A DNA stretch of 64,000 nt, taken from positions 480,001-544,000 of the forward strand of contig OZ251992.1 of NCBI GenBank assembly GCA_965246885.1, written 5' to 3'. Origin of the DNA: Abditibacterium sp. GTDB taxonomy: Bacteria > Armatimonadota > Abditibacteriia > Abditibacteriales > Abditibacteriaceae. The notes under the pieces were generated by a model. That model ran no database searches. It was not told the origin of the DNA and worked only from the letters and a program-made list of their open reading frames with translations. The number at the start of each line of letters is the position of its first letter. Positions within the stretch are counted from its first letter, which is position 1. Positions 3,220-49,394 of the stretch are shown here, piece by piece. The position numbers were made by a program, and so were the translations under genes.

Positions 3220-3624
3220 CTACGCGGCGCGCGTTTGGAGTAGCTCGGCGACTTTGGCTTTCAAACCGGACAGGTCGCTTTGCTTCACAATGTAAGCGTC
3301 GGCTGACCACGACGCGAAGGAGTCCTTATAACTCGCGTAGGCAGTGTGAATGATGACCGGGACGTGCCGGTCGGCTTCGATGAGGCGCGACATGGTATCG
3401 AGGCCGTCCATCACCGGCATGTTGACGTCTATAATGACGAGGTCGGGGTGCGACTCGGCAGCCATGCGTAACGCCTGCTTGCCGTCGGGCGCGGTAATGA
3501 CTTCGTAGCCCTCATCGCGCATCTCTTCCTCATACAAAGCGCGTTGGTTGGGATCGTCTTCGACGATCAGTATAAGCGGCTGGCGCGGTGCGGTTTGGGT
3601 CGGTGTGCTGGTGTCGGTATTCAT
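3220..3624 (-). CDS. Single-domain response regulator (receiver)
   Basis: ILIVEDD, PDLVIIDVNMPVMDG, HTAY, YIVK; no output domain. Confidence 0.92.
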   Translation of the reverse strand: MNTDTSTPTQTAPRQPLILIVEDDPNQRALYEEEMRDEGYEVITAPDGKQALRMAAESHPDLVIIDVNMPVMDGLDTMSRLIEADRHVPVIIHTAYASYKDSFASWSADAYIVKQSDLSGLKAKVAELLQTRAA

Positions 3625-35235: not shown

Positions 35236-37596
35236 ATGTTCAAACCGTTTCTTTTTCTCGCCACTCTCGCCGCCGCTTACACGTCCACTTCTTCATGCGC
35301 TCAGTCCGCGCCCAAGGCGCTTGCTGTGGCTCAGCCTGTTACCCCGACAAAGCCCGCCGCGCCTTCTAACCCCGCCAACCTTTCCAACTCCTACAATTGG
35401 AAGCCGGTTCGGATTGGCGCGGGCGGGTTTGTGACGGGGTTCGTGACTCACCCGCTCGATGCCCGCGTGCGCTATTGCCGCACCGACGTTGGCAACGCTT
35501 ACAGGTGGAACGGACGCGAGTGGGTGCCAATGATCCGGCGCATCGGCAAGACCGGTTTGCCGCGCGAGTTCACGCGCGCGCCGGGGCAGGGCGGCAGTGA
35601 GGCCCTCGCTGTAGACCCCTCGAACACGCGCGTCGTTTACATGGCGTACGCGGGCTACTACTCGTCCGACCAGAAAGATGCCGGCTACGCCGCCGTGCCG
35701 GGGAGCGTCTACAAAAGCACGGACGGCGGGCAGACCTTTGTTGCGGGCGATTTGAACGTGCCGATGGAGCCGAACAACGAAGACCGCACCAACGGCGAGC
35801 GATTGCAAGTTGACCCCAACAACGGCCAAGTCGTTTATTACGGCTCGCGCAAAAACGGCCTGTGGCGCTCCGTTGATGGCGGCGCACATTGGGCGCAAGT
35901 GAGCGGGGGCGGAGCGCCCGACGCCACATCCAATGTTATGCGCGTCCTGTTTCTCAAGGGCGACACGGTTTCGAGTTCTGGGCAAACGGTGGGCAAGACG
36001 GTTTTCGCCACGACGTGGGGCGGCTCCGTGTTCGGTTCGACCGACGGCGGGGGCACTTGGACGAACATCTCCAAAGGCGAAGAGTTGGACGGGCACGCGG
36101 GCATTTCGCTCGTGGATAGTCGCGGCGCGCTGTATGTCGTGCAAAAAGACACCCCCTTCGTGTGGCGCTACGTCGGCGGTAAGTGGGAGAAGCTGATTAC
36201 ACGGCTAACCTACGGCGGCTCGCCCGCGCGTGGCTTCGCCGTTGATCCGCGCAACCCTGACCGACTGTATGCCAGCAACGGCAACGGCGGGTTGGGGCGC
36301 TCGCTCGATGGCGGCAAAACGTGGACGGAGCTTGGCTACGACATCCAATTTGCCAACACCTTCGGCTGGGGGCCGCAGCCGCGCTTCAAAGTGGGACGCT
36401 CCAACGCGGGCATTTTCTTCGACCGCGACGGCGTTCTGTGGATGCCCCAAGGCAACGAAGGCGTGCTACGCGTCAAGCTGACCGACACCGAACCGTTTGA
36501 CGGCGTGCGCTGGACAATTGACTCCAGTGGCATCGAAGAGTTCGTGACGCACGACGTCATTCTCCCGCCCGGTGGCAAGCCGCTCGTGGCCGTTCAGGAC
36601 GCTATCGGCCTGCTGGTCAACGACCCCGCCACGTTGTCGGCAAAGCAGATTAGCCTGCAAGACCAGCTAATCAGCAACGGAAGCGGTCTCGCGTACTGCC
36701 CCGACGCTCCCTCGTTCGTCGCGGTCGCTGCCGCCGACGTCAACCACACCGGGTCGGGCGCCAACTACTCCGGCTTCTCCTCCGATGGCGGCGCGACGTG
36801 GACGCGCTTCGCGGGCTTGCCCCACAACCCCGATGGCAGCACGGTCAACGCTCCCGGCTCCATCGCCATCTCGCGCCGCGACGGGCGCGCCTTGGGCGCC
36901 GACCACCTCGTCTACCTTCCCTCCGGCACAAGCGGCGCTTTCTACTCCAAGGACGGCGGCGCGACGTGGGCAAAAGCCACCGGCTTTCCAGACGCCCAAG
37001 CGTACTGGATTTTCGCCCTCAAGCAGCGCGCCCTCAAAGCCGACCCCTTCGTCGCCGACAAGTTTTACTACAAAGGCTCGTGGACTCCGGCGGGGCTGTA
37101 TGTCTCGACCGACGGCGGCGCGTCGTGGAGCGAGCAGAAAGACGCCGGTTTGCCGGGGAACACCCATCACGGCCAGTTGGAAGTCAATCGTTTGGTGAAG
37201 GACGACCTCTGGTTTGTGGACGGAATGGAAGGCGCAACGGCGCACGGCCTGTGGCACTCGACTGATGGCGCCCACTTCGCCCGCGTGCCCGGCGTTGATT
37301 TCGCCTACACCCTCGCCGTCGGCAAAGGAAGCGGCATCAAGGGCGATGCGCCTTCGGCCACCTACTTTTACGGCAAAATGAGCGGCGATGACGACTGGGG
37401 CGTTTTCCGCTCCCTCGACGGCGGCACCCATTGGGCGCGCATCTCGTATTACCCCACCGGTTTGCTCGACACCCCCACCTGTATGGCCGCCAATTACGAC
37501 GCTTTCGGGGTTGTTTACGTCGGCTTCAACGGCAACAGCTTCGTTTACGGAACGCCAGTCGCCGCCAAGACCCCCGCGCCCGCCAATTTGCCCTAA
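35236..37596 (+). CDS. Secreted GH74-like (xyloglucanase-type) BNR/Asp-box beta-propeller hydrolase
   Basis: YNWKPVRIGAGGFVTG..YCRTDVGNAYRW, GERLQVDPNN, many SxDGGxTW repeats. Confidence 0.85.
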   Translation: MFKPFLFLATLAAAYTSTSSCAQSAPKALAVAQPVTPTKPAAPSNPANLSNSYNWKPVRIGAGGFVTGFVTHPLDARVRYCRTDVGNAYRWNGREWVPMIRRIGKTGLPREFTRAPGQGGSEALAVDPSNTRVVYMAYAGYYSSDQKDAGYAAVPGSVYKSTDGGQTFVAGDLNVPMEPNNEDRTNGERLQVDPNNGQVVYYGSRKNGLWRSVDGGAHWAQVSGGGAPDATSNVMRVLFLKGDTVSSSGQTVGKTVFATTWGGSVFGSTDGGGTWTNISKGEELDGHAGISLVDSRGALYVVQKDTPFVWRYVGGKWEKLITRLTYGGSPARGFAVDPRNPDRLYASNGNGGLGRSLDGGKTWTELGYDIQFANTFGWGPQPRFKVGRSNAGIFFDRDGVLWMPQGNEGVLRVKLTDTEPFDGVRWTIDSSGIEEFVTHDVILPPGGKPLVAVQDAIGLLVNDPATLSAKQISLQDQLISNGSGLAYCPDAPSFVAVAAADVNHTGSGANYSGFSSDGGATWTRFAGLPHNPDGSTVNAPGSIAISRRDGRALGADHLVYLPSGTSGAFYSKDGGATWAKATGFPDAQAYWIFALKQRALKADPFVADKFYYKGSWTPAGLYVSTDGGASWSEQKDAGLPGNTHHGQLEVNRLVKDDLWFVDGMEGATAHGLWHSTDGAHFARVPGVDFAYTLAVGKGSGIKGDAPSATYFYGKMSGDDDWGVFRSLDGGTHWARISYYPTGLLDTPTCMAANYDAFGVVYVGFNGNSFVYGTPVAAKTPAPANLP

Positions 37597-37620
37597 CCAT
37601 CGTCAGGCGACCCGAAGACA

Positions 37621-37752
37621 GACGTGCGCCATGCGAAGACGGGCGTCCGGGAGCGAGTAACAGAGGCCAGCGGGTCGTTCCCGGACGTCTGTCACGCGTC
37701 CGCCGTCGTCTGTCACTCGCTCCCGGACGTCCGTCTTCGCATGGCGCACGTC
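37621..37752. repeat. 44-bp inverted repeat built from GACGTC-core units
   Basis: 37621-37664 versus 37709-37752, 2 mismatches. Confidence 0.8.
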
Positions 37753-37760
37753 GCTAAACG

Positions 37761-37791
37761 CACGGCGCCCCGATGGTTTCGGGGCGCCGTG
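37761..37791. terminator. GC hairpin between convergent genes
   Basis: CACGGCGCCCCGA-TGGTT-TCGGGGCGCCGTG. Confidence 0.6.
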
Positions 37792-37812
37792 TGGTGTTTT
37801 GCTCCGGCAGAC

Positions 37813-38943: not shown

Positions 38944-38987
38944 AAAAGAAAAGCGAGACCGGGCGAAGTAGCCTTTCACTCGGCCTC
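38944..38987 (-). terminator. Probable intrinsic terminator ending the ncRNA/defence transcript
   Basis: GAGGCCGAGTGAA...TTCGCCCGGTCTC followed by GCTTTTCTTTT on the minus strand. Confidence 0.6.
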
Positions 38988-39332
38988 TGGTGCCGCGATT
39001 TCGGTCGCCGATGGCGTTTAAGGGAGCGCTGAAGTTGAAATCACACGTCGTATCACTTGACTACCCCTCCGAGTAAGTGGGTGTCTGGCGGAGGGGGGAG
39101 GAATCAAACCTCCGTTTTGTGAGACAGGCACTTCCATTGGATCCGGCGAGCGCGGCGAATACTCAACTTGCGAGGAACACCTTGAATTTGAAACCAGCCG
39201 AATCCGTTGATTCGTGCGTCTGCCATTTCGCCATCCGCGCGTGAAAATCGAAGTGCGCGGAGCAGGACTCGAACCTGCACGCCGGGTTGTTTCAAGTTGA
39301 TCTTGAACTTGAGCTTGCCTCGCAGAAGATTT
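38944..39332 (-). ncRNA. Putative large structured ncRNA with two circularly permuted tRNA-like modules (YrlA/Y-RNA-like topology); boundaries approximate
   Basis: Module 1: T-arm GCAGG-TTCGAGT-CCTGC, closed acceptor TCCGCGC/GCGCGGA, D-arm TGGCGAAATGGCAGACGC. Module 2: GGAGG-TTTGATT-CCTCC, CCCTCCG/CGGAGGG, TAGTCAAGTGATACGAC. Enclosing stems plus a terminal hairpin and U-tract. Confidence 0.75.
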
Positions 39333-39354
39333 TACCGGATGGGGTGGCGGCGCG

Positions 39355-40086
39355 CTACCGGAATAAATACCCGAACAGCGCATCTCCCACTTTTTTCTCG
39401 TCGGCTTCGATGCCGTTGGCTTGTTCGCGCGAGAACTTGACGGCTTGGGAGAGCTTTTCCAAGCGGTCTAACAGTTCGCGTTTGCGCGGGATGGGCAGGG
39501 CGCCGGACTGCTTGACGGTGTCCCAGTAGCCCACGACGACATCCTCGGTGATGAGTTGCGTTTGCGCGGGGTGTTTGTCGGTGGCCTCGTACAAGACGAC
39601 GGGGCGCTGCACTTTTTTGGTGCGCTGCGTGGCGATGGAAGCGGTTTTGAACAGCCCGGAGTTGGGGTCGCTTTGCCACTCGTCGGCGGGGTCGAGCGTG
39701 GGGAGCTTGTCCACGAACGTGTGCAAGTCGGTCAGTTGCTTTTCGAGAAACAGCAGGAACGGGATGGGCGCTTGCGCAATAAGCGTTTGTCCGTCCACCA
39801 CAACGTCAGCAAAGGCGAGGCAGTTGGCGAAGTCCTTGGTCGCCGAAACGTCGAACATTTCGGTGAGGAGTTTGGAAACTTGGGCCAGCACCTCGTTCGC
39901 TTCGAGTTGGACGCGCTTGGTTTCGGGCGGGTAGTCCTCGCCTTCTTCGTCGCGCTTGCGGTAGTTCTTCGAGAAGCCGGTGAACAGGTCGGCTTTTTGG
40001 GACGCCTTGTGCAGTTCGGTGAAATCGCCGTAGACGCGCGACTTGACCGACTTTTCAACGGCCACGATTTGGTTGAGTTTGGGCAT
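39355..40086 (-). CDS. Uncharacterised protein (KLNQIVAVEK N-terminus; DUF7873-like from memory), directly upstream of the tRNA-like ncRNA
   Basis: 243-aa ORF with normal codon usage; helical N- and C-termini around a central beta-rich segment (TQRTKKVQRPVVLYEATDKHPAQTQLITEDVVVGYW). Confidence 0.85.
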   Translation of the reverse strand: MPKLNQIVAVEKSVKSRVYGDFTELHKASQKADLFTGFSKNYRKRDEEGEDYPPETKRVQLEANEVLAQVSKLLTEMFDVSATKDFANCLAFADVVVDGQTLIAQAPIPFLLFLEKQLTDLHTFVDKLPTLDPADEWQSDPNSGLFKTASIATQRTKKVQRPVVLYEATDKHPAQTQLITEDVVVGYWDTVKQSGALPIPRKRELLDRLEKLSQAVKFSREQANGIEADEKKVGDALFGYLFR

Positions 40087-40113: not shown

Positions 40114-43100
40114 TTAGTGTGACGGCGTGGCGCGGGCTTGGATGTCGCGCAGGATGGCGGCGAGTTGGTCGGCGCCCGATGGGAAAAGGCCCAACGCGCC
40201 GGAGGGGTGGGCGTGGGTAAACGGTTGGGCGATGAGTTGCCCCGGTTCGACGATGCCGTTTTGCGCGAGCAGGTCGAGGAGTTGGCCAATGAAATCCATC
40301 TGCGCCGCCGTGAAAGTGGCGCCGTCCAAGAAGGCGCCGAAAGCCTTTTTTGCTGCCGCGCGGTCGAGGCCCACGACGGAGCGCACGAATTCGCCCAGCT
40401 TGGGTTGCGGGCCAAAGTACGCCTCGTAGTCGGCGCGCGAGGGGAAGCCGGACGCGCCGAAAATCATCTCGTCCAAGAGCGCCCACTCGTCGGGCGCGAG
40501 CGGCTCGTTCTCGTGCAGTTTGCGAATGGCGGGGTGGTGTCGCTGCGACTCTATCCAAGCGCGGACGCGCTTGCGATAGTCTACGAAGGCAGGCGAAGGC
40601 GCAAGTCCGGCGTGTTCGACGAGTCGCACGTTCGAGTCCTCAAAGTCGGTGTACACCGGCAGGCGTGCGCTTTTGTCGGCGAAACCGACGAGGTCGCGCA
40701 TCCCCCGGCGCAGCGTTTCAAGAGCCGGGAGGGAAGCGTTTCGCCACCATTCGTCCTCCGTGACTTCCACGAGGAGCGGCTCCTTCGCGCGGACATCGGG
40801 GAGGGTGGCGGCTTTTTCGAGCAGGTTCTGCGCGAGGTCGCGCACCTCCTTTTGTAAGGGCGCCCACTCCTTCGAGGCGTGCAACAGCGCGAGTTGCAAG
40901 CGCAAGCACGTCAGGTCGAAGCGGCGCGCGAGCGGCTCATCGGAGGGCAGTTCGGTCGGGAGCGCGGCGAGGTGCGCTTTGATTTCGTCCGCGTCGGTGT
41001 CGGAGATGGTCTCCCAACGCGCGCGGTCGTTCCAGCGCTCAACTTGGCGCCCATGCGCCCGCACCACGAAGTTGTCGCGGTTCATGGCCGCAACCTCGGC
41101 GTGCAGGGCGTCCGCCCACTCGCGGCGCAACTCCGCCAACTCCGGCCCCATCTGTCCCGTCAGGCGCAGTAGTTCGACGCGCCGCTCAAAGATGCGCTGG
41201 TCTAAACCCACTTGGGCGGGCGCCTCGATGCCTTCGGGCTTGGCCTCGAAAAATTCCAAGTTGCCGCAAAAATCGAAGACGAAGAACTCCCTTTTATCTA
41301 CGCCCACGTCCAATAGGTCAGGGCACAAGCGCGTGCCGCGTCCGATCATCTGGGCGAACTTGGTCTTGGAACGCACCGGTTTGAAGAACACGAGGTTGAC
41401 GATTTCGGGCACGTCTATGCCGGTGTCGAGCATGTCCACCGAGATGGCGATGGTCGGCTGCTTGTTGGGGGTGGAGAAGGCGTCAATGAGCGACTGCGCG
41501 CCGGTGATCTCGCTGTGAATGACGGACGCGAAGTGCCCCGCATAGCTGGGATAAGCGAGGTTGAACCGCTCGCAAATGAACTCGGCATGCTTTTGGTTGC
41601 GCGCGAAGATGATGGTCTTGCCCAACTGCGCGCCGCCGCCCACCTTGAGGCCGCTCGTCATCAGGGTTTTGAGGACTTTGTCCACCGTGTCGGCGTTGAA
41701 CAGCCACGCATTGACGGCGGCGGAGGGCACTTCGTCGGGGGCGCCCTCCTCGCCCCATTCGCGCTCGTCCCACTCGGCTTTCTCTTCGTCGGGCAACTGC
41801 GCGTATTTGATGCCCTCCATCGGGAACTTCAAGTGCCCCGCGAACAGCTTCGCCGGAACGAGGAATCCGTCGCTGACGGCTTCTTCCATCTCGTAAAAGG
41901 AAGTGGGGGCGCCCTTTTTGAGGTCGAAGAGTTTGTAGGTGTCCTTGTCCACTTCGTCGCGCGGCGTGGCGGTGAGGCCGAGCAGCAGGGAGTCGAAATA
42001 CTCGAAAATGGCGCCGTATTTCTGGTAAACACTCCGGTGCGCCTCGTCCACGACGACTAAATCGAAGTGCCCGACGCCAAAGCGCCGCGCGGCGTCGGCA
42101 TCCTTGCCTTCGATGAGGTTCATCATCGTCGGATAGGTGCAACACAACACGCGCGCGCCCGTCTCGGCCTTGTCCTCGACCAAGTTCTGCGGCGATGAGG
42201 AGGGCAGATGCTTCTTAAATTGCTTCCACGCTTGATCTACGAGCGCCTTTCTGTCGGCCAGAAACAACACCCGCTTTGCCCATCCCGCGTTCATCAGCAT
42301 GTCCACGAGCGCGATGGTGGTACGCGTTTTTCCCGTCCCGGTCGCCATGACGAGCAAGCCTTTGCGGTGCCTGTTTTCGAGATGCTCGCCCCACGCCCGA
42401 ATCGCGCGGGTTTGATAGGCGCGGCCGGCGATGCTCTGGTTAATCGCCACACTTCCGAGCGCCACCCGCGTCGTCCGTTGCCCGACCAGCCGCTCCAACT
42501 CGGCCTTCGAGTAAAAGCCTTGAACCTGTCGCGGCGGGTAGCCGTTGCCCTCGTCCCACAGATAATGCTCATAGCCATTGGAATAGAACACGACGGGACG
42601 GCGCCCGAACTTGGCCGCGAGGCAGTCGGCGTATTGCCGCGCTTGCTCCTGCCCGTCGTGCGGCGACTTGCTCGCGCGCTTGGCTTCGACGACCGCGAGC
42701 GGCAACCCGTCGTCGCCCCACAGGACGTAATCCACGCGTCCGTTGCCCGATTCGCTCGGCATCCCCTCGACGGGAAACTCGCGGTCGCGCGGGTCGGCGA
42801 GCAGCCAACCGGCCTCGCGCAGCAGCACATCAATCAAAATCTCTCGCGTTTTGGCTTCGGAATAATCGTGGGTATCGGGCGTTTCGAGCGACTTCTTCTT
42901 GGCGAGCGCCAATTCCTGCCGAAGTTCTTCGATCTCGGCTTCGCTTTGCGAGAGGCGCGTGCGGTAATCCTCGCGCTCGCCCCGAAGCTGCTGCGCCAAC
43001 GCTTCGACCTGCGCCCGACTCGTCGCCACTACCTTACCAATCGAAGGCGGCAACTTTTGCGGCTCAAACGCGAGCGAGTCGGCGGGCTTTTGCTTCGCGT

Positions 43101-43464
43101 AAGTGCGCGCCACCCAGAAGAACAAATGGAACAACTCGCCCACGATGCTCCGCGCCAACTCGCCATCGGGCGGCAACGCGCCGTGAACCGCCTCGTTGCC
43201 CACGCGCTGCAGCAAGCGCGCTTTCTCGTGGACGGCTTTGGGGAAAAAGCGCAGCGCCCCCAATTCGCGTAGGTTGTCGCCGAGCGAATCATACGGCGTG
43301 GGCAGCGATTGGTCGTGGTCAAACAACCACTCCACGCCCACTTCGAGCGCCCGCCGCGCATAAAAACATGCCGCGCGCGGGTCGGAGTTCGCATAGTTCT
43401 CGGCAGTGCGCGCGGCAGCGAAAAGGTCGGGAAACTCCGTTTGAAGGAAGAGGAAATTGCTCAT
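40114..43464 (-). CDS. hsdR: Type I restriction endonuclease subunit R (EcoAI/EcoEI-like, DUF4145-type N-terminus)
   Basis: VDYVL..VEAKR nuclease, MATGTGKT, VDEAHRS, GLTATP, DMLDTGID, QMIGRGTR. Confidence 0.95.
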   Translation of the reverse strand: MSNFLFLQTEFPDLFAAARTAENYANSDPRAACFYARRALEVGVEWLFDHDQSLPTPYDSLGDNLRELGALRFFPKAVHEKARLLQRVGNEAVHGALPPDGELARSIVGELFHLFFWVARTYAKQKPADSLAFEPQKLPPSIGKVVATSRAQVEALAQQLRGEREDYRTRLSQSEAEIEELRQELALAKKKSLETPDTHDYSEAKTREILIDVLLREAGWLLADPRDREFPVEGMPSESGNGRVDYVLWGDDGLPLAVVEAKRASKSPHDGQEQARQYADCLAAKFGRRPVVFYSNGYEHYLWDEGNGYPPRQVQGFYSKAELERLVGQRTTRVALGSVAINQSIAGRAYQTRAIRAWGEHLENRHRKGLLVMATGTGKTRTTIALVDMLMNAGWAKRVLFLADRKALVDQAWKQFKKHLPSSSPQNLVEDKAETGARVLCCTYPTMMNLIEGKDADAARRFGVGHFDLVVVDEAHRSVYQKYGAIFEYFDSLLLGLTATPRDEVDKDTYKLFDLKKGAPTSFYEMEEAVSDGFLVPAKLFAGHLKFPMEGIKYAQLPDEEKAEWDEREWGEEGAPDEVPSAAVNAWLFNADTVDKVLKTLMTSGLKVGGGAQLGKTIIFARNQKHAEFICERFNLAYPSYAGHFASVIHSEITGAQSLIDAFSTPNKQPTIAISVDMLDTGIDVPEIVNLVFFKPVRSKTKFAQMIGRGTRLCPDLLDVGVDKREFFVFDFCGNLEFFEAKPEGIEAPAQVGLDQRIFERRVELLRLTGQMGPELAELRREWADALHAEVAAMNRDNFVVRAHGRQVERWNDRARWETISDTDADEIKAHLAALPTELPSDEPLARRFDLTCLRLQLALLHASKEWAPLQKEVRDLAQNLLEKAATLPDVRAKEPLLVEVTEDEWWRNASLPALETLRRGMRDLVGFADKSARLPVYTDFEDSNVRLVEHAGLAPSPAFVDYRKRVRAWIESQRHHPAIRKLHENEPLAPDEWALLDEMIFGASGFPSRADYEAYFGPQPKLGEFVRSVVGLDRAAAKKAFGAFLDGATFTAAQMDFIGQLLDLLAQNGIVEPGQLIAQPFTHAHPSGALGLFPSGADQLAAILRDIQARATPSH

Positions 43465-43470
43465 GGCGGG

Positions 43471-44157
43471 TTAAAAGAGTTTGTCGTCGCCGCACGCGGC
43501 GTCAAGGGCTTCGAGGAGGAGATGAACGTCGGTGCCGGGGTTGGCGGGCGGGGTTTGGGTCGAGTTGCCGCACAAACGCTTGGCTCGCCCGATGGCATCC
43601 CGAATGAGAGGGTGCAACAAGTCAAAATCGAAATCCTTTTTCCCGTAACCACGCCGCTCTGTGTTTTTCCACTTGGTGCGGATGTGCGATACGACCTCTT
43701 TACATCCCTTCCAAGGGGCAAGGACTTCCTCGGTGTGAAGCAAAATCCACAGCTCAAAGCATGGATTGGAAAACACAACAGAAAACGCTTGTTGGCTGCA
43801 AAGGGCAAGGGCGCGCTCCGTTCCCGTTCGGTGCCCTTTCTTGAAATGGTGGTCAACGTCCAGCACAATCCACACGTCGTCGCTGTCTTCCACTTCCAAC
43901 TGTTTGAGCGCGCGTTCCACCGTCTGAAGCGGGCTGGAAAGGTCGTGGGCGTCGCGCGATTGTTGGGGTGTCAGGGGCCGCAACGCCAACACGCGGATGT
44001 CGTCGCGCCCCTTGACCAACTCCTCGAAATAAATCGCTTCGCTGTGCCCGCCACAGGCAATAATGAAAAGCGGAATCGCTTCCGGCTCGGCTTCAACGGG
44101 CGCAACCTCTTTCGGGTCGCTCTGAGAAGACGGGCGAACTAACTCAGGACGCGGCAA
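43471..44157 (-). CDS. rloB: RloB family (TOPRIM-like) protein
   Basis: SEAIYF, VWIVLDVD, FSNPCFELWILLH, NPGTDVHLL; overlaps the ATPase stop. Confidence 0.85.
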   Translation of the reverse strand: MPRPELVRPSSQSDPKEVAPVEAEPEAIPLFIIACGGHSEAIYFEELVKGRDDIRVLALRPLTPQQSRDAHDLSSPLQTVERALKQLEVEDSDDVWIVLDVDHHFKKGHRTGTERALALCSQQAFSVVFSNPCFELWILLHTEEVLAPWKGCKEVVSHIRTKWKNTERRGYGKKDFDFDLLHPLIRDAIGRAKRLCGNSTQTPPANPGTDVHLLLEALDAACGDDKLF

Positions 44158-45538
44158 TGGCGTTCACCTCGCTCGCTTCCGCCGCGTTTTCATCCTCGTC
44201 TTCTTCCATCAAGGAAAACATCCGGTAGCTCAGTTCCGGCCCGCCGCCGCCGATGCGCCCCAACTCATACGCCTTTTCATACGAGCGGTCATTGCGAATC
44301 GGGTATTCGTTGAGCCGCTCCAACGTCGTGCGGTTCTGCTTTTTGCGCGCGAAGAAAATCTCGTCGCGGCGCAGGAGCAGCGAATCGAGCAGCGCCGTTT
44401 CGTGCGTCGTGAAAATCAGTTGGTTGCCCAAAACCGGCGACTGTTGCGCTAACTCCACCAAGCGCCGCGTGAGTTTGGGATGAAAGCGGCGCTCGATTTC
44501 GTCTATGACGAACACGGTCGGCGCATCTTTCATCCGAAACAGCCCCGCCAACAAGTGGATAAGGCGCTGCGTGCCAGATGACTCCCAATCAAGCGGGAAT
44601 TCCGCGTCGCTTCCATCGTCTTTCTTGTGGCAGGCCACCAACTCTAAAAACCACAACTGGCCCTCATCGTCTTTTTCGATTGCCGCCGGGGTGTAGTCTT
44701 TGAGCAGAGTAAGGCTCGTGCCCGGTTCGAGCGCGGCCAGTCGCTCTTCCAAATCATCGGGGTCTGCTTCAACCCACTCCTTTTTGAAAGGACGGCGCTT
44801 TGGCACTAAGCAATCAATTCCCGTGTCGGCAAACTTCAAAAACTCCGAAAGGAACTCCAAAAACTCCTGTCGTTTGTGAGCTACGGTTGCCAACGTTTCC
44901 ATTTTCGCCTCAGCATGGGCGATAACCAAAACCTCTCGAAACCACTCTTCCAAGGGTTTGATAGATTGGCTGTTGCTGTCTATAAAACGCCAAAGCACCA
45001 ACTCGTCTTCGGGCAAACGTCCGGGTTTTGTCGAGAGTTCGAGGAGTTGTGCCTCGTCTTTAGGGAGAGATTTCAAGAACGCTGGCCCCCACTTGACCTT
45101 CGTCTGTTTGTCTGCATCGGTTGTGCGCTCGAACCACTTCTGCTCTTTGCCGCCGTTTTGGTCTTGCACAAAAAGATACTCCTCGGCGACGCGCTGGCCG
45201 TTGACCTCGAAGCCGTAATTCCACAGCCGCGCCTCGTAAAGAAAAGACCAATGAAAGCCAGAAGGGCGTTCTATTTCGCCAGACAACCGAAAGCGAGAGC
45301 GTGCCCGAATAGTTGCCCCACGCTGACGCATAATCAAATCCCGCGCAAACCCCATCGCCAAAACCAAATTGCTCTTGCCCGCCGCGTTTGCGCCGTAGAT
45401 GGCGGCTGTTCGCACGGCGCTGTATTTTCCGAGCGCCATGACGTGCGAGGGGTGGTCTTTGTCGCCGCCTGCGCGCATCGAGAACGCGGTCGGCTCGTCG
45501 AAGGATTTGAAGTTGGAGGCGGTGAACTGAAGTAGCAT
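44144..45538 (-). CDS. rloA: RloA-like AAA_21/ABC-type ATPase
   Basis: MLLQFTASNFKSF, IYGANAAGKSN, ESSGTQRL, VIDEIE..HP, QLIFTTH, RRDEIFF. Confidence 0.85.
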   Translation of the reverse strand: MLLQFTASNFKSFDEPTAFSMRAGGDKDHPSHVMALGKYSAVRTAAIYGANAAGKSNLVLAMGFARDLIMRQRGATIRARSRFRLSGEIERPSGFHWSFLYEARLWNYGFEVNGQRVAEEYLFVQDQNGGKEQKWFERTTDADKQTKVKWGPAFLKSLPKDEAQLLELSTKPGRLPEDELVLWRFIDSNSQSIKPLEEWFREVLVIAHAEAKMETLATVAHKRQEFLEFLSEFLKFADTGIDCLVPKRRPFKKEWVEADPDDLEERLAALEPGTSLTLLKDYTPAAIEKDDEGQLWFLELVACHKKDDGSDAEFPLDWESSGTQRLIHLLAGLFRMKDAPTVFVIDEIERRFHPKLTRRLVELAQQSPVLGNQLIFTTHETALLDSLLLRRDEIFFARKKQNRTTLERLNEYPIRNDRSYEKAYELGRIGGGGPELSYRMFSLMEEDEDENAAEASEVNAIAAS

Positions 45539-45559
45539 GACACCCTAAAATATAAACGA

Positions 45560-45601
45560 AAACGCCCATCCGTGCGGGAAAACCGCAGTAGATGGGCGTT
45601 T
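45560..45601 (-). terminator. Stem-loop terminator after the 45622-46317 gene
   Basis: AAACGCCCATC...GATGGGCGTTT followed by T-rich sequence on the minus strand. Confidence 0.6.
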
Positions 45602-45621
45602 GTCGGCGGAATCGGCCCCCT

Positions 45622-46317
45622 TTACGCCAGTGTCGCTATGGTTTGGGTGAGGGACATTTTGCCGTCGCCTTGGATGCCGTCGGTTGACCATTCGACGGCG
45701 TAGTTGCGGACTTCGGAAATGTTGAGATTGGCGTTGGGGCGCGTGTCCACGTAGTGGGTGCCCGCGACTTTATCCAGCAGCGACAGTTGTTGTTCTCCCG
45801 CGCGCATCGAATAGATGAACACCATTTTCGCGCCGCCGCGCCGGAAGGTTAGCCCGACTTGGCCGTGCATCATCGGGTCGAGGCTCATAATTTCGGGCAC
45901 GACGGTGGAAACCGGCGCGAGGGGCACCAAGCCGAGCGCGATTTTTTCGGCGTCGCTGGCGGTGGGCAGAATCTTGACGTTGATGATTTGCGCCATGCGC
46001 TTGAAGATGCCGCTTTGCGCGACGGGCGGCGGTGTGGACGGCGTGAACGCGGGATATGGCTGGCCGCTCGGTGTGGCGTCGGTGTCGAGTTGGTCGGCGT
46101 ATGAGGTGACGGCTTTCGAGAAAGTGCGCGTGTAATTGACCAGCCCGACGCGCGCATAAGACAGCGCCATCGCCGAGTTGTGGATGTCGAGCAACTCTTC
46201 TTGCAGCAGGTTGAACTTGGTCGCAAAGGGCGGAATGGCCGTAGCGAAGTTGACGAGCCAGTTCATGCGGTCAATGCTGCCAACGGGCAGATACGGCGCG
46301 TAAAAGAAGGTGGACAT
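45622..46317 (-). CDS. Hypothetical protein, helical N-domain plus C-terminal FnIII/Ig-like beta domain
   Basis: YLP..WLVNF helical start, ALGL hinge, beta-rich C-terminus with YVDTRP..EVRNY. Confidence 0.75.
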   Translation of the reverse strand: MSTFFYAPYLPVGSIDRMNWLVNFATAIPPFATKFNLLQEELLDIHNSAMALSYARVGLVNYTRTFSKAVTSYADQLDTDATPSGQPYPAFTPSTPPPVAQSGIFKRMAQIINVKILPTASDAEKIALGLVPLAPVSTVVPEIMSLDPMMHGQVGLTFRRGGAKMVFIYSMRAGEQQLSLLDKVAGTHYVDTRPNANLNISEVRNYAVEWSTDGIQGDGKMSLTQTIATLA

Positions 46318-46376
46318 GGGTGTTGAGAACTCTCCGCCCCTTTGTATCCCTCATTTTGGGGCGTCGCGCTACTCTG

Positions 46377-46544
46377 GCGCGAGTTCGCGCGAGAGTCGCG
46401 CGGCTTCCCTCAAGAGCCGCGCGAGTTCGCGCGAGAGTCGCGCGGCTTCCCTCAAGAGTCGCGCGAGTTCGCGCGAGAGTCGCGCGAGTTCGCTCAAGAG
46501 CCGCGCGAGTTCGCGCGAGAGCCGCGCGAGTTCCTTCAAGAGTC
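46377..46544. repeat. 21-bp tandem array, 8 units with alternating A/B variants
   Basis: GCGCGAGTTCGCGCGAGAGTC alternating with GCGCGGCTTCCCTCAAGAGCC-type units. Confidence 0.92.
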
Positions 46545-46586
46545 GCGCGAAGCCCCGAAAAGGTGGGATTGAGCGTGAATTGTGTC

Positions 46587-46712
46587 CGGAGAACGCTTGG
46601 CGCAGCCGGATGCCGGGGATTTTAGTTCCCCGTTGGTGTGTGGGCTGGTGGAATCGGGGATATGAAATCCCCGGCATCCGGGCGCAAGCGCCCAAGCGTC
46701 CTGCCGGACGCG
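46587..46712. mobile_element. REP-doublet element, copy A
   Basis: CCGGATGCCGGGGATTTTA..spacer..GGGGATATGAAATCCCCGGCATCCGG, with flanks matching the reverse complement of 49909-50027. Confidence 0.8.
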
Positions 46713-46725
46713 GCACGAGGGCGCC

Positions 46726-47856
46726 CTACAATTCCCCGCAAAACGCCCGCTCTTGCAGCGCCCCAAACAGCGCGTCGCTTTCCAACAGCGCCGCCCGCGC
46801 CGTCGCCTTGAGCGTTTCGATGGCCTCCACCCGCTCCGCGAACTGCTGTTGAAGCGGGAGGGGCGGGAGGGGGATTGGCAATCTCCGCAAGTCGTCGCCG
46901 CTTATGTTGATAAACGTGCTTCCGTTTCCCGTCGCCTGAAAATATGGGTAATAGATTTGGAGAACGAAGTAGACAAACTCGCGGCTGACGGTGGAGAATG
47001 GTCTCATTCGGATGGCGGCAACACCGCGCCCCAAACAGTAAGTTTTGTCGGCGATGTTCAAGCGCCCCGCCGTCGCCCCACGAACGCAAAAGAGAATGTC
47101 TCCGTCCTCGCATAGCTTGGTCGGCTCGGTCGTCCACTGCTTTTCGATGGGATAGCGCATCCCAAACTCGGTCGGCCCGTTCAGAAGTGGTTGCCCTTTG
47201 CCTTGGTCGTTGTAGGATGTTCCGGGCGGCGACTGCCCCATAACCAACTCCACCACGTTGCCCAATGAAGTCGCGCCTTCCGGCGCCTTTTTTTGCGATA
47301 CCTGCGCCAAGGGGTCGCCGAACATATCGCTGAAAAGGGCGGCGACGAGTTCATCGAGGCGTTGGAGCATTTGGGCGCGCAGTCGGCGCACGGCGTCGGC
47401 TTTGTCGAGGATGGACGCGAGGCGCTGCTGCTCGGAAAGGGGCGGGAGGGGGATTTCAATGTCTCGAATCTGCTTGACGGACAAGTGTTTAACGGTGACG
47501 AAGGGCGTCACATCCTCAATTTTCTTGAGAGCGGCGGGCAGAAAATAGAAGAGAAACCCGCCGTCTAATTTGCCGCAGGCGCAAATGCGGCAGACCCGTT
47601 GGTTCAACAGCGCCTTCTCGGATTTCCACTTGGCGCGGTTGAACTCTCCGTCCATCCCAATCAGGGTATCGCCGTCACTAACCAAATACCGCTCGTCGTA
47701 GGAGCCGGAGTAATATGTTTCCGAGAAGCCACGCACAACATCCCTAATCCGAGCGAGAGGCAACCCCTCGCCGTGCGTGTTGAACATCGTGGAATCGAAA
47801 GCAAAGCCGGAAAGAATTTCCGTCACCTCCCCCAATTTGACGGTTTGCCAGTTCAT
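46726..47856 (-). CDS. hsdS: Type I R-M specificity subunit (two TRDs)
   Basis: WQTVKLGEV; conserved repeats IPLPPLSEQQRL and IPLPPLPLQQQF; ERAFCGEL end. Confidence 0.95.
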   Translation of the reverse strand: MNWQTVKLGEVTEILSGFAFDSTMFNTHGEGLPLARIRDVVRGFSETYYSGSYDERYLVSDGDTLIGMDGEFNRAKWKSEKALLNQRVCRICACGKLDGGFLFYFLPAALKKIEDVTPFVTVKHLSVKQIRDIEIPLPPLSEQQRLASILDKADAVRRLRAQMLQRLDELVAALFSDMFGDPLAQVSQKKAPEGATSLGNVVELVMGQSPPGTSYNDQGKGQPLLNGPTEFGMRYPIEKQWTTEPTKLCEDGDILFCVRGATAGRLNIADKTYCLGRGVAAIRMRPFSTVSREFVYFVLQIYYPYFQATGNGSTFINISGDDLRRLPIPLPPLPLQQQFAERVEAIETLKATARAALLESDALFGALQERAFCGEL

Positions 47857-49394
47857 GCGAGGAGTTCCTCCAGTTGGGCGAGTTGGGTTTGGATTTGGGC
47901 GTCGAGGGTGCGCAGGTCGGCGAGGAGTTCGGCGGGGGGGCGGTGGGCTTGGGTTTGGAGTTCGATGTGTTTGTAGCGGTTGAGGCTGAGGTCGTAGCCG
48001 TTGGCGGCGATTTCGGATTTGGGGACGAAGAAGGATTGGGCGGTGCGGGGGTTGACGGGGGGAGTGAGAGCGGGGCTACCGCCCTCTTCCAATCCTTCCA
48101 CCAAGCCCGATTGGAAGTGGGCGGTAGCCCCGCGCCACGCTTCCAGCACCGCCGGGATGTCGTTGTCGCGGGTGGGTTGGCGCTTGTCGTCGAGCGAGAA
48201 GCCGTCGGCTTTCATGTCGAAGAACCACACGTCGTCGGTGCCGCCCGCGCCGGTTTTGGTGAAGAGTAGGATGGCCGTCGAAACGCCCGCATACGGTTTG
48301 AAGACGCCCGACGGCATCGAGATGACGCCTTGCAAGCGGTGCTTTTCGACGAGGGTTTCGCGCATCGCGCGGTGCGCGCCCGAACTGCCGAACAAGACGC
48401 CATCGGGCACAATGACCGCCGCGCGGCCACCGGGTTTCAAGAGGCGCAGAAACAGCGCGAGAAAGAGCAGTTCGGTCTTCTTGGTCTTGACTTCGGCTTT
48501 GAGGTCGTTGGCGACGGCGCTCTCGTCCAAACTTCCGGCGAAAGGCGGGTTGGCGAGGATGACGTCGTAGGATTCGGCGTCGCCCGACGCGCCTTGCGAA
48601 AGGGAGTCGCGGTATTGGATGCGCGGGTTCTCGACGCCGTGCAAGGCCATGTTCATCGAGCCGATGCGCAGCATGGTGGCGTCGAAGTCGAAGCCGGTGA
48701 AAGCGTCGTTGTTCCAAAAGTGCGTGGTGTCGCCGTTGCGATGGATGGCATTGCCCCACGTCTTGCGCTCGTAGATGGCCGAGTACACGAGGAAGCCCGC
48801 CGTGCCGCAAGCGGGGTCGCACACGCGCTCGCCTGCGCGCGGCGCCATGAGCGCGACCATCATTTCGATGATGTGGCGCGGCGTGCGGAACTGCCCGTTG
48901 CGTCCCGCTTGCGAGAGTTTGGAAAGCAGGTATTCGTAGATGTCGCCCTTGGTGTCGAGGTAATCTTTCCCCGCCATGACGAGGCGTTGCGCTTCTAATT
49001 CGAGGCCGTCTATGAGTTCGACGACGCGCCCCAACAGCGCCGCCGTCGGAATGGTGAAGCGCGCGTCCTTCATGTTGGCGGTGTAGGAACTGCCGCCGAG
49101 CGTTCGCAGCCAAGGGAAGAGGTCGCGCGAGAAAAGCTCGAACTGCGCGTCCGGCGCGATGTTGTGGAAGCGGCTCCACCGGAACTTGCTCGACGCCGCG
49201 TCGAACAGGGAGTTCTCCAAGACGCCGCCCTCGATGCGCGCCCGTTGTTCGAGGGCAATCTGCGTGTCATCCAAACGCCGCAGGAAGAGCAGGTAGGTAA
49301 TCTGCTCGATGGTTTCGAGCGGGTTCGAGATGCCGCCGGTGTAGAACGCTTCCCAGACGGCATCTATCTTCGACTTGAGTTCGGGCGTGAGCAT
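47853..49394 (-). CDS. hsdM: Type I R-M N6-adenine methyltransferase subunit
   Basis: GQFRTPRHII, DPACGTAGFL, ANPPF, IVPDGVLF. Confidence 0.96.
   Translation of the reverse strand: MLTPELKSKIDAVWEAFYTGGISNPLETIEQITYLLFLRRLDDTQIALEQRARIEGGVLENSLFDAASSKFRWSRFHNIAPDAQFELFSRDLFPWLRTLGGSSYTANMKDARFTIPTAALLGRVVELIDGLELEAQRLVMAGKDYLDTKGDIYEYLLSKLSQAGRNGQFRTPRHIIEMMVALMAPRAGERVCDPACGTAGFLVYSAIYERKTWGNAIHRNGDTTHFWNNDAFTGFDFDATMLRIGSMNMALHGVENPRIQYRDSLSQGASGDAESYDVILANPPFAGSLDESAVANDLKAEVKTKKTELLFLALFLRLLKPGGRAAVIVPDGVLFGSSGAHRAMRETLVEKHRLQGVISMPSGVFKPYAGVSTAILLFTKTGAGGTDDVWFFDMKADGFSLDDKRQPTRDNDIPAVLEAWRGATAHFQSGLVEGLEEGGSPALTPPVNPRTAQSFFVPKSEIAANGYDLSLNRYKHIELQTQAHRPPAELLADLRTLDAQIQTQLAQLEELLA

Follow-up and report, generated by a model that had tools for sequence, protein, structure and literature searches.

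The window, a 64,000-nt stretch of Abditibacterium sp. DNA (contig OZ251992.1), contains a minus-strand gene for a 243-aa protein followed by an RNA-like sequence that resembles two circularly permuted tRNAs, and we asked what this pair is and what it might do. The original prediction had called the gene uncharacterised and proposed that its product and the RNA form a ribonucleoprotein (RNP) with a double tRNA elbow. A Pfam family for the gene exists: the product matched DUF7873 (PF25283) at 348.7 bits, above the Pfam cut-off of 27 bits. The features of the locus are as follows.

39355 to 40086, minus strand: DUF7873 gene, 243 aa (Pfam E value 2.5e-104)
39329 to 39334, minus strand: weak candidate -10 box of the RNA's own promoter (TANNNT pattern)
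38944 to 39324, minus strand: whole RNA, about 380 nt, with putative ends
39318 to 39324, minus strand: 5' strand of P1, which pairs with 39169-39175 and closes domain 1 (three covarying column pairs, z 5.6-7.8)
39290 to 39316, minus strand: repeat strand T, (A-R-N-Y-U-N)n, four U-N-A units at period 6 (unit and column counts)
39281 to 39286, minus strand: linking stem at the variable-arm position, pairing with 39194-39198 (sequence; geometry across homologues)
39216 to 39280, minus strand: head 1, tRNA-Leu-like; U48; T arm, 39262-39278; 3' acceptor strand, 39255-39261; A73, 39254; 14-nt loop; 5' acceptor strand, 39234-39240; Leu-type D arm, 39216-39233
39199 to 39214, minus strand: head 1 hairpin at the anticodon-arm position, 6 bp with a 4-nt loop, lacking an anticodon (comparison of heads)
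39177 to 39192, minus strand: repeat strand V, two U-N-A units (column counts)
39158 to 39169, minus strand: repeat strand W, which may pair with the start of strand T and would then cross P1 (cell-pairing count)
39129 to 39156, minus strand: 5' strands of domain 2; P3, 39151-39156 (from sequence only); P4, 39144-39149; conserved internal-loop motif, 39137-39144; P5 (covariation for P4 and P5)
39047 to 39114, minus strand: head 2; C48; T arm, 39097-39113, with a non-canonical loop; 3' acceptor strand, 39090-39096; G73 and encoded CCA, 39086-39089; 5' acceptor strand, 39064-39070; D arm, 39047-39063
38992 to 39039, minus strand: 3' strands of domain 2; U-N-A units, 39028-39039; YUUAAAYG, 39015-39022; P4', 39005-39010; P3', 38992-38997
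38944 to 38987, minus strand: terminator-like hairpin, 38955-38987, and U tract, 38944-38954 (minimum-energy fold)

On rereading the sequence, we found both T arms, both D arms, P1 and the two closing stems of domain 2 where the original prediction had placed them. The acceptor stem of the second module is present too, but its tRNA register lies one base over, with 39090-39096 paired to 39064-39070. The described lack of an anticodon loop is accurate for a 7-nt loop, although head 1, which is joined to the rest of the RNA through its variable-arm position, keeps the small hairpin at 39199-39214; the described lack of a free CCA applies only to the uncut transcript, as head 2 encodes CCA after G73. 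The two elbows exist as tRNA-like heads that are neither equivalent nor simply closed, having 7-bp acceptor stems, frequent CCA and leucine identity in head 1. The terminator said to end the unit corresponds to a hairpin and U tract, with similar hairpins in homologues, but this hairpin is absent from the list of our terminator scan. A promoter scan of the region found nothing; in 21 of the 56 loci that could be anchored, a TANNNT sequence has its end 4-7 nt ahead of P1, a count made without a control set. The folding energy of the single sequence is not significant alone (z -1.23), and neither Rfam nor ARAGORN made a call for the RNA region. The period-6 repeats are a feature that the earlier reading of the locus had missed.

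The AlphaFold2 model of DUF7873 (pLDDT 96) predicts a helical bundle with a long β-hairpin (residues 151-194), at the tip of which lies the conserved motif T-x-x-H-P-A-Q. Among 148 sequences, H172, Q175, D182, N88 and N224 were near-invariant, and 15 positions were Lys or Arg in at least 70%. A complex model of four copies gave a symmetric homodimer with a score of 0.44 (best control, 0.00), contact agreement between runs of at least 83% and partner pLDDT of at least 75. Of 30 solved pairs, 20 scored at least this high, as did 1 of 23 single chains; these counts apply only approximately because the DUF7873 job used four copies and its own alignment, unlike the calibration. From this modeling, DUF7873 is predicted to be a two-fold symmetric homodimer. 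Searches of the PDB by sequence and by fold, and of VIA and BFVD by fold, gave no clear relative; the best fold-search matches were generic helical bundles, which does not by itself establish a new fold. No family in NCBIfam, PHROGs or PADLOC (2023) matched DUF7873. We found no published DUF7873-RNA pair in open PMC and bioRxiv texts, from which the name "DUF7873" is absent; some such RNAs could be listed in papers behind subscription or in the supplementary files of Chen et al. 2014.

The family is large (2333 clusters at 50% identity) and was found in 17 of 201 genomes of the window's phylum, in 4 of 251 and 13 of 201 genomes of two other phyla, in 75 INPHARED phage records, in 300 IMG/VR matches and in at least 474 metagenome matches; 80 each of the viral and metagenome matches were taken into our locus set. 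The 243 loci with a protein hit were reduced to 196 distinct ones by dropping 26 duplicates, 18 loci with less than 450 nt downstream and 3 partial proteins. A pattern finder detected heads downstream of the gene in 179 of these (two heads in 131, one in 47, three in 1) and upstream in 6, compared with a single positive each among 140 distant flanks and among 196 reverse strands. A domain-2 covariance model recovered the RNA in 6 of the 11 loci that the finder had missed, bringing the permuted-tRNA RNA to 191 of the 196 loci, in bacteria and phages alike. Neither method found it at five intact genes (L013, L056, L150, L177 and L209). Many of the one-head counts are finder misses; three phage loci do appear single-headed, which suggests that two heads are not always needed.

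The tight linkage to the upstream gene, whose product the original prediction had proposed as the RNA's partner, was also seen at the level of whole genomes. When 150 genomes were searched with a covariance model, a full-length hit of at least 70 bits was present in 13 of 14 genomes with DUF7873, 5 of which were in the training set of the model, and in 1 of 136 others. The 14th DUF7873 genome has a long insertion and scored 35 at the locus. The sole hit in a genome lacking DUF7873 is a 5'-truncated remnant (L265, contig C160 of genome G143, about 1425-1700) in which domain 2 is intact and head 1 and the gene are gone; the best remaining score in the 136 genomes was a partial match of 56.6. These comparisons indicate that the gene-RNA association is real and conserved. 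Inserted genes separate the RNA from the DUF7873 gene in two loci (L001 and L042), and in planctomycetes the RNA lies upstream of the gene; both arrangements suggest that the RNA has its own transcript. The gene inserted in L042 (3684-4961, Microcoleus phage My-WqHQDG) is an RRXRR-HNH (IscB-like) gene. In annotated phages, the DUF7873 gene is followed by a gap of about 400-500 nt that carries no annotation. In Gordonia phage Ziko (L041, about 3330-3440), an extra T-arm hairpin precedes the RNA and overlaps the small annotated ORFs 125-126, which may be mis-annotations.

Conserved, covarying structure lies downstream of homologous genes, in agreement with the idea of an RNA partner. When 104 loci were aligned by sequence alone, the columns with the strongest covariation fell in two long-range helices of domain 2 (z 8-12) and in P1 (z 6-8). 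The named domain-2 structure was 90.2% paired in 41 sequences, compared with 59.3% for shuffled and 39-49% for slid sequences. P4 and P5, which unlike the heads had not been chosen by pairing in this test, were paired in 91.9% and 86.2% of cells, with compensatory changes at every pair. Acceptor stems were fully paired (7/7) in 90 of 94 heads, though the finder required only 5 pairs. The tRNA tertiary pair 15-48, positions that the finder did not use, was complementary in 305 of 312 heads (shuffles: mean 200, maximum 227), which argues that the heads are under selection for an L shape. Related sequences inflate all of these pairing and covariation counts.

The two heads differ in identity. First heads carry A73 in 115 of 132 cases, G1-C72 in 104 and a Leu-type D arm in 100, and have canonical T loops; second heads never carry a Leu-type D arm (0 of 133), have more odd T loops, vary at the discriminator (U 71, G 44, A 18) and have C74 in 117. 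In this genome, the four best tRNA matches of head 1 were all tRNA-Leu, and head 2 had no clear match. The Leu-type features, found in head 1 only, comprise A73, U8-A14, the D/T core, the D arm and the geometry of the variable region; the D-arm patterns were defined with the data in view and afterwards tested on natural tRNAs. An encoded CCA follows the acceptor strand in 69 of 133 second heads, including that of the window, and in 34 of 132 first heads, compared with 0 of 47 host tRNA genes. Of the 132 first heads, 17 lack A73 and 98 lack an encoded CCA, and some loops are only 4-6 nt long, which counts against the charged surrogate that we favour below. We considered whether the CCA encoded in head 2 compensates for poor CCA addition and found no support for this (17 of 28 heads with odd T loops encode it, compared with 52 of 105 others).

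Head 1 exists in two forms that differ in D arm and geometry. GCG-type heads keep the anticodon-position hairpin in 44 of 59 cases, and the link enters 1-2 nt before the T stem; GCC-type heads have the hairpin in 2 of 51 and show 5-6 unpaired bases before the T stem. Among natural tRNA-Leu genes in the loci, 14 of 15 with the GCG type are long-arm and 8 of 8 with the GCC type are short-arm, so that the geometry of each head-1 form matches that of the corresponding natural tRNA-Leu. Among natural tRNAs of the studied loci, 23 of 49 tRNA-Leu had one of these D arms, and none of the 281 others did. On a FastTree protein tree the form changed 8 times, compared with 38 for shuffled labels, which indicates that it is inherited with the protein and yet has switched more than once, staying Leu-like both ways. 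That the form tracks the tRNA-Leu of the host was unsupported, as the GCC-type D arm is unique to the DUF7873 locus in 4 of 5 genomes with a GCC-type head. According to the available text of PMC2377443, LeuRS requires A73, the D/T tertiary core and how the variable arm is oriented, and not the anticodon arm; that of PMC6614811 reports that Streptomyces LeuRS ignores A73. Head 1 carries U73 in 3 of 5 actinobacterial chromosomal loci, two of which are close kin. Head 1 could also owe its leucine features to a tRNA-Leu ancestor, with folding as the reason for keeping them; descent by itself could account for some of the resemblance.

The hexamer repeats occupy the rods. At least three U-N-A units at period 6 were present in 41 of 57 loci (9.6% of shuffles), and within domain 2 they lie opposite one another in the loops that separate covariation-backed helices; the domain-2 motif YUUAAAYG is conserved in 96 of 137 two-head loci. 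Strands T and V showed no covarying register above shuffles, either in 31 rows or in the 56 loci, of 137, for which an anchor was available. Between W and the beginning of strand T, 432 of 616 cells were paired, compared with 408 ± 6 for shuffled rows, an excess due mostly to a single column pair. RNA binding through periodic repeats is known for TRAP, Hfq and Cas7; the U-N-A repeats are probably docking sites for the DUF7873 dimer. An alternative in which the repeats mimic anticodon loops (Y-U-N-A-R resembling positions 32-36 of Leu and Phe tRNAs) was set aside, as the base counts fit unconstrained positions and no test favours it.

Among known RNAs, the closest in design is YrlA, the Y RNA bound by Ro60/Rsr (RF02553). 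The order of T arm, closed acceptor stem and D arm, with tRNA tertiary pairs, is found here too, and the available text of the YrlA papers (PMC4201824; 10.1101/312249) indicates that YrlA shares the covarying Levitt pair, a protein-docking rod in the anticodon position and an occurrence in bacteria and phages. RNase P cuts the YrlA of M. smegmatis, which also acquires CCA (PMC4201824), and YrlA acceptor stems vary in length (10.1101/312249), as far as the available text goes. The DUF7873 RNA differs in having two unlike heads, fixed 7-bp acceptor stems, a frequent encoded CCA, leucine identity in head 1, period-6 repeats in place of the Ro60 motif GNCGAAN0-1G, and DUF7873 in place of rsr as partner gene. 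The window RNA gave no YrlA match in Rfam at E values up to 5, and none at the RF02553 threshold of 69 bits; 3 of 8 homologous loci matched at 25-27 bits, the best at 27 bits (E 0.0009, 431-nt search), which bears out the predicted YrlA-like topology. The Ro60 motif occurred in 22 of 137 RNAs, the chance level (19% of shuffles). As originally predicted, rsr is absent from the window; we found none among the 77 flanking ORFs scanned and no TROVE match in this genome (92.7% complete). In the window's phylum, TROVE was found in 10 of 17 DUF7873 genomes and 34 of 184 others, kin not being independent, and no match was found in the other 7 of the 17 or in 4 of 5 further DUF7873 genomes; where both occur in one genome, the distance between them is hundreds of kb, or they sit on different contigs. 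Given the sub-threshold Rfam score, the absence of the Ro60 motif and the lack of an adjoining rsr, the sequence comparisons indicate that the DUF7873 RNA is built like YrlA but is not a member of that family.

Two further RNAs invite comparison. Like tmRNA with SmpB, the DUF7873 RNA combines an anticodon-less tRNA-like domain with a dedicated protein, and we propose a further likeness in charging by a synthetase that ignores the anticodon (alanine in tmRNA, leucine in head 1). Two-piece tmRNA likewise arises from a permuted gene from which the acceptor loop is removed, as we propose here. The DUF7873 RNA differs from tmRNA in having two heads and no tag reading frame with a conserved stop; ARAGORN and Rfam called no tmRNA here, ARAGORN found a separate tmRNA elsewhere in the genome, and the alanine identity G3:U70 is nearly absent (positions 3-70 hold G-U in 2 of 132 first heads and in 1 of 133 second heads). 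With type II (long-arm) and type I (short-arm) tRNA-Leu, as described in the available text of PMC6614811 and PMC2377443, head 1 shares the D arm, A15-U48, A73, G1-C72 and the geometry of the variable region; it differs from them in being permuted, lacking an anticodon loop and free 5' and 3' ends, and being embedded in an RNA of 330-380 nt. In genomes G125 (L277, C3:306800-307750) and G096 (L272, C4), we also observed tandem permuted tRNA-like units that keep an anticodon-loop-like sequence and adjoin a ThiF-like ORF (labelled by eye); G125 gave no TROVE match. Three near-identical hairpins of the window's genome (G000:C1 351206-351281, 1435707-1435791 and 3354297-3354378), called tRNA-SeC or tRNA-Stop by ARAGORN, look like a dispersed repeat family and not tRNAs.

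On the protein side, DIP1984/DUF6847 (PF20935; PDB 3KDQ) resembles DUF7873 in the order of helices and hairpins and in two invariant Asn residues, and an Atlas cluster with 14% DUF6847 members aligned to a DUF7873 model at TM 0.47/0.63. Searches for homology between the two gave HHalign probabilities of 1.3% and 0.9%, and 3KDQ was absent from the top 50 VIA matches. In 4 of 6 loci (L065, L067, L069 and L070, the last behind a tRNA cluster), the DIP1984/DUF6847 gene is followed, about 20-260 nt after the stop, by a conserved RNA-like stretch that has a single T arm and shared 3' motifs; it matched no Rfam family and not our DUF7873-RNA model. DUF6847 and this stretch possibly form a sister RNP family.

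The surroundings of the pair differ between viruses and bacteria. Flanking tRNA genes were found in 40 of the 81 viral loci, compared with 10 of the remaining 115, and RlaP, PNKP and RNA ligase genes surround one viral locus. Among bacterial neighbours (77 of 112 flanking ORFs scanned), no partner gene was shared and no defence gene recurred. In the window, the pair comes after a type I restriction-modification operon (hsdM, hsdS and hsdR; 40114-49394, minus strand) in which an AAA ATPase and RloB pair matching AbiLi/AbiLii is inserted before hsdR. In two phages the RNA is followed by a band-7 protein gene (L038:3874-4746) or a PP-loop (TilS-like) gene (L036:5813-6646). At 37584-37804, the window also holds a long nested inverted repeat downstream of a 328-aa ORF, with chance-level Rfam matches only.

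The reading that we favour, at a probability of about 0.4, is that DUF7873 and the RNA form one RNP in which the loops are cut, head 1 is leucylated and the complex serves as a tRNA surrogate in translation. Comparison across loci shows an RNA of two rods, each ending in an L-shaped, circularly permuted, anticodon-less tRNA head. A DUF7873 dimer would, very likely, dock on self-complementary Y-U-N-A-R units of the rods, as Ro60 does on YrlA. By the same analogy, RNase P together with 3' trimming or CCA addition would plausibly remove the acceptor-stem loops and leave real CCA ends. The chances seem even that host LeuRS, not needing an anticodon, would then charge head 1 with leucine while head 2, having no fixed identity, would stay an uncharged CCA arm. 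More tentatively, the complex might stand in for tRNAs when these are damaged or scarce, donating leucine to stalled ribosomes or occupying them; a role under tRNA stress is our proposed reason why phages keep the pair among tRNA and RNA-repair genes. Counting against a surrogate, we infer that the 70S decoding site could not take the long rods at the anticodon position without a sharp bend. An extended version strikes us as improbable: the RNP would be a "wildcard" nuclease-proof leucyl-tRNA, with DUF7873 replacing the anticodon arm and the uncharged second head as its pair, that adds leucine to or releases ribosomes stalled by tRNA-cutting defences so that phages keep translating, and DUF6847 and unnamed viral clusters with T-loop RNAs of their own would be branches of a wider RNP superfamily.

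Next in our ranking, and less likely, is a decoy or shield that never enters the ribosome and absorbs factors that recognise the elbow, acceptor arm or CCA end, be they toxins that bind tRNA, defence enzymes or starvation sensors. The abundance of the pair in phages, including inside tRNA clusters, and its position after a restriction system with AbiLi/AbiLii-like genes fit this role, and two different heads would cover two targets; however, DUF7873 has no PADLOC match, the scanned bacterial neighbours hold no recurring defence gene, and an RNA lacking an anticodon loop cannot mimic the site cut by anticodon nucleases. A Y-RNA-like tether, in which DUF7873 takes the place of Ro60 and is linked through the RNA to PNPase or enzymes of RNA repair, ranks lower and seems rather unlikely. 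It would draw on the YrlA-like topology and the higher frequency of TROVE in DUF7873 genomes, and the tRNA shape, cutting and charging would serve only to protect from nucleases, as suggested for M. smegmatis YrlA by Chen et al. in the available text of PMC4201824. Protection, though, leaves unexplained why head 1 is Leu-like in two geometries that switched about eight times and head 2 never is.

Lower still, and distinctly improbable, is a toxin-antitoxin pair in which DUF7873 would be a toxin directed at tRNAs or ribosomes, with the RNA as the antitoxin that binds it at the repeats and mimics what it acts on. Systems with RNA antitoxins are likewise two-part mobile units with repeats, the conserved H172, K158, Q175 and D182 could be catalytic, and the remnant in G143 kept the rest of the RNA after losing the gene and head 1. 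The five genes at which no RNA was found can be cited for this reading and, being intact, against it; lytic phages moreover keep the pair among tRNA genes, and the PDB, VIA and BFVD matches, all weak, include no nuclease or transferase fold. Two last readings are very improbable. A true YrlA Y RNA that binds an Rsr encoded elsewhere, with the DUF7873 link incidental, would account for the sub-threshold YrlA matches and the TROVE enrichment, but not for the genomes in which TROVE was not found, the chance-level Ro60 motif or the almost perfect co-occurrence of RNA and DUF7873. A tmRNA-like template or gapped guide could be read from the repeats, where the A-R-N-Y-U-N frame lacks stop codons, varies at third positions and gives alternating Lys/Arg/Asn/Ser and Leu/Phe/Val/Ile codons, and the weakest-grade Foldseek matches of DUF7873 include Cas7 and a RAMP protein (TM 0.11-0.15). 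We rejected the repeats as a coding frame: polar triplets nearly always begin with A, even in GC-rich hosts, the same units occur on several strands, 1-nt insertions and an in-frame stop interrupt the frame, and the first stop lies 6 to 84 codons away.

If the extended "wildcard" version is true, this RNP would be a second, so far unrecognised kind of trans-acting tRNA surrogate beside tmRNA. A charged head 1 would give bacteria a rare natural case, next to tmRNA, of an aminoacylated RNA that is not a tRNA. The finding also bears on the purpose of the tRNA-like head in bacterial Y RNAs, the interactor of which is left unknown in the available text of both YrlA papers (PMC4201824; 10.1101/312249). 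Here, a YrlA-like design occurs without Ro60 and with a different protein, in a large family that spans several bacterial phyla and phages cultured on laboratory hosts. With a leucine signature and an encoded CCA, processing, charging and ribosome binding become direct questions for this putative RNP.
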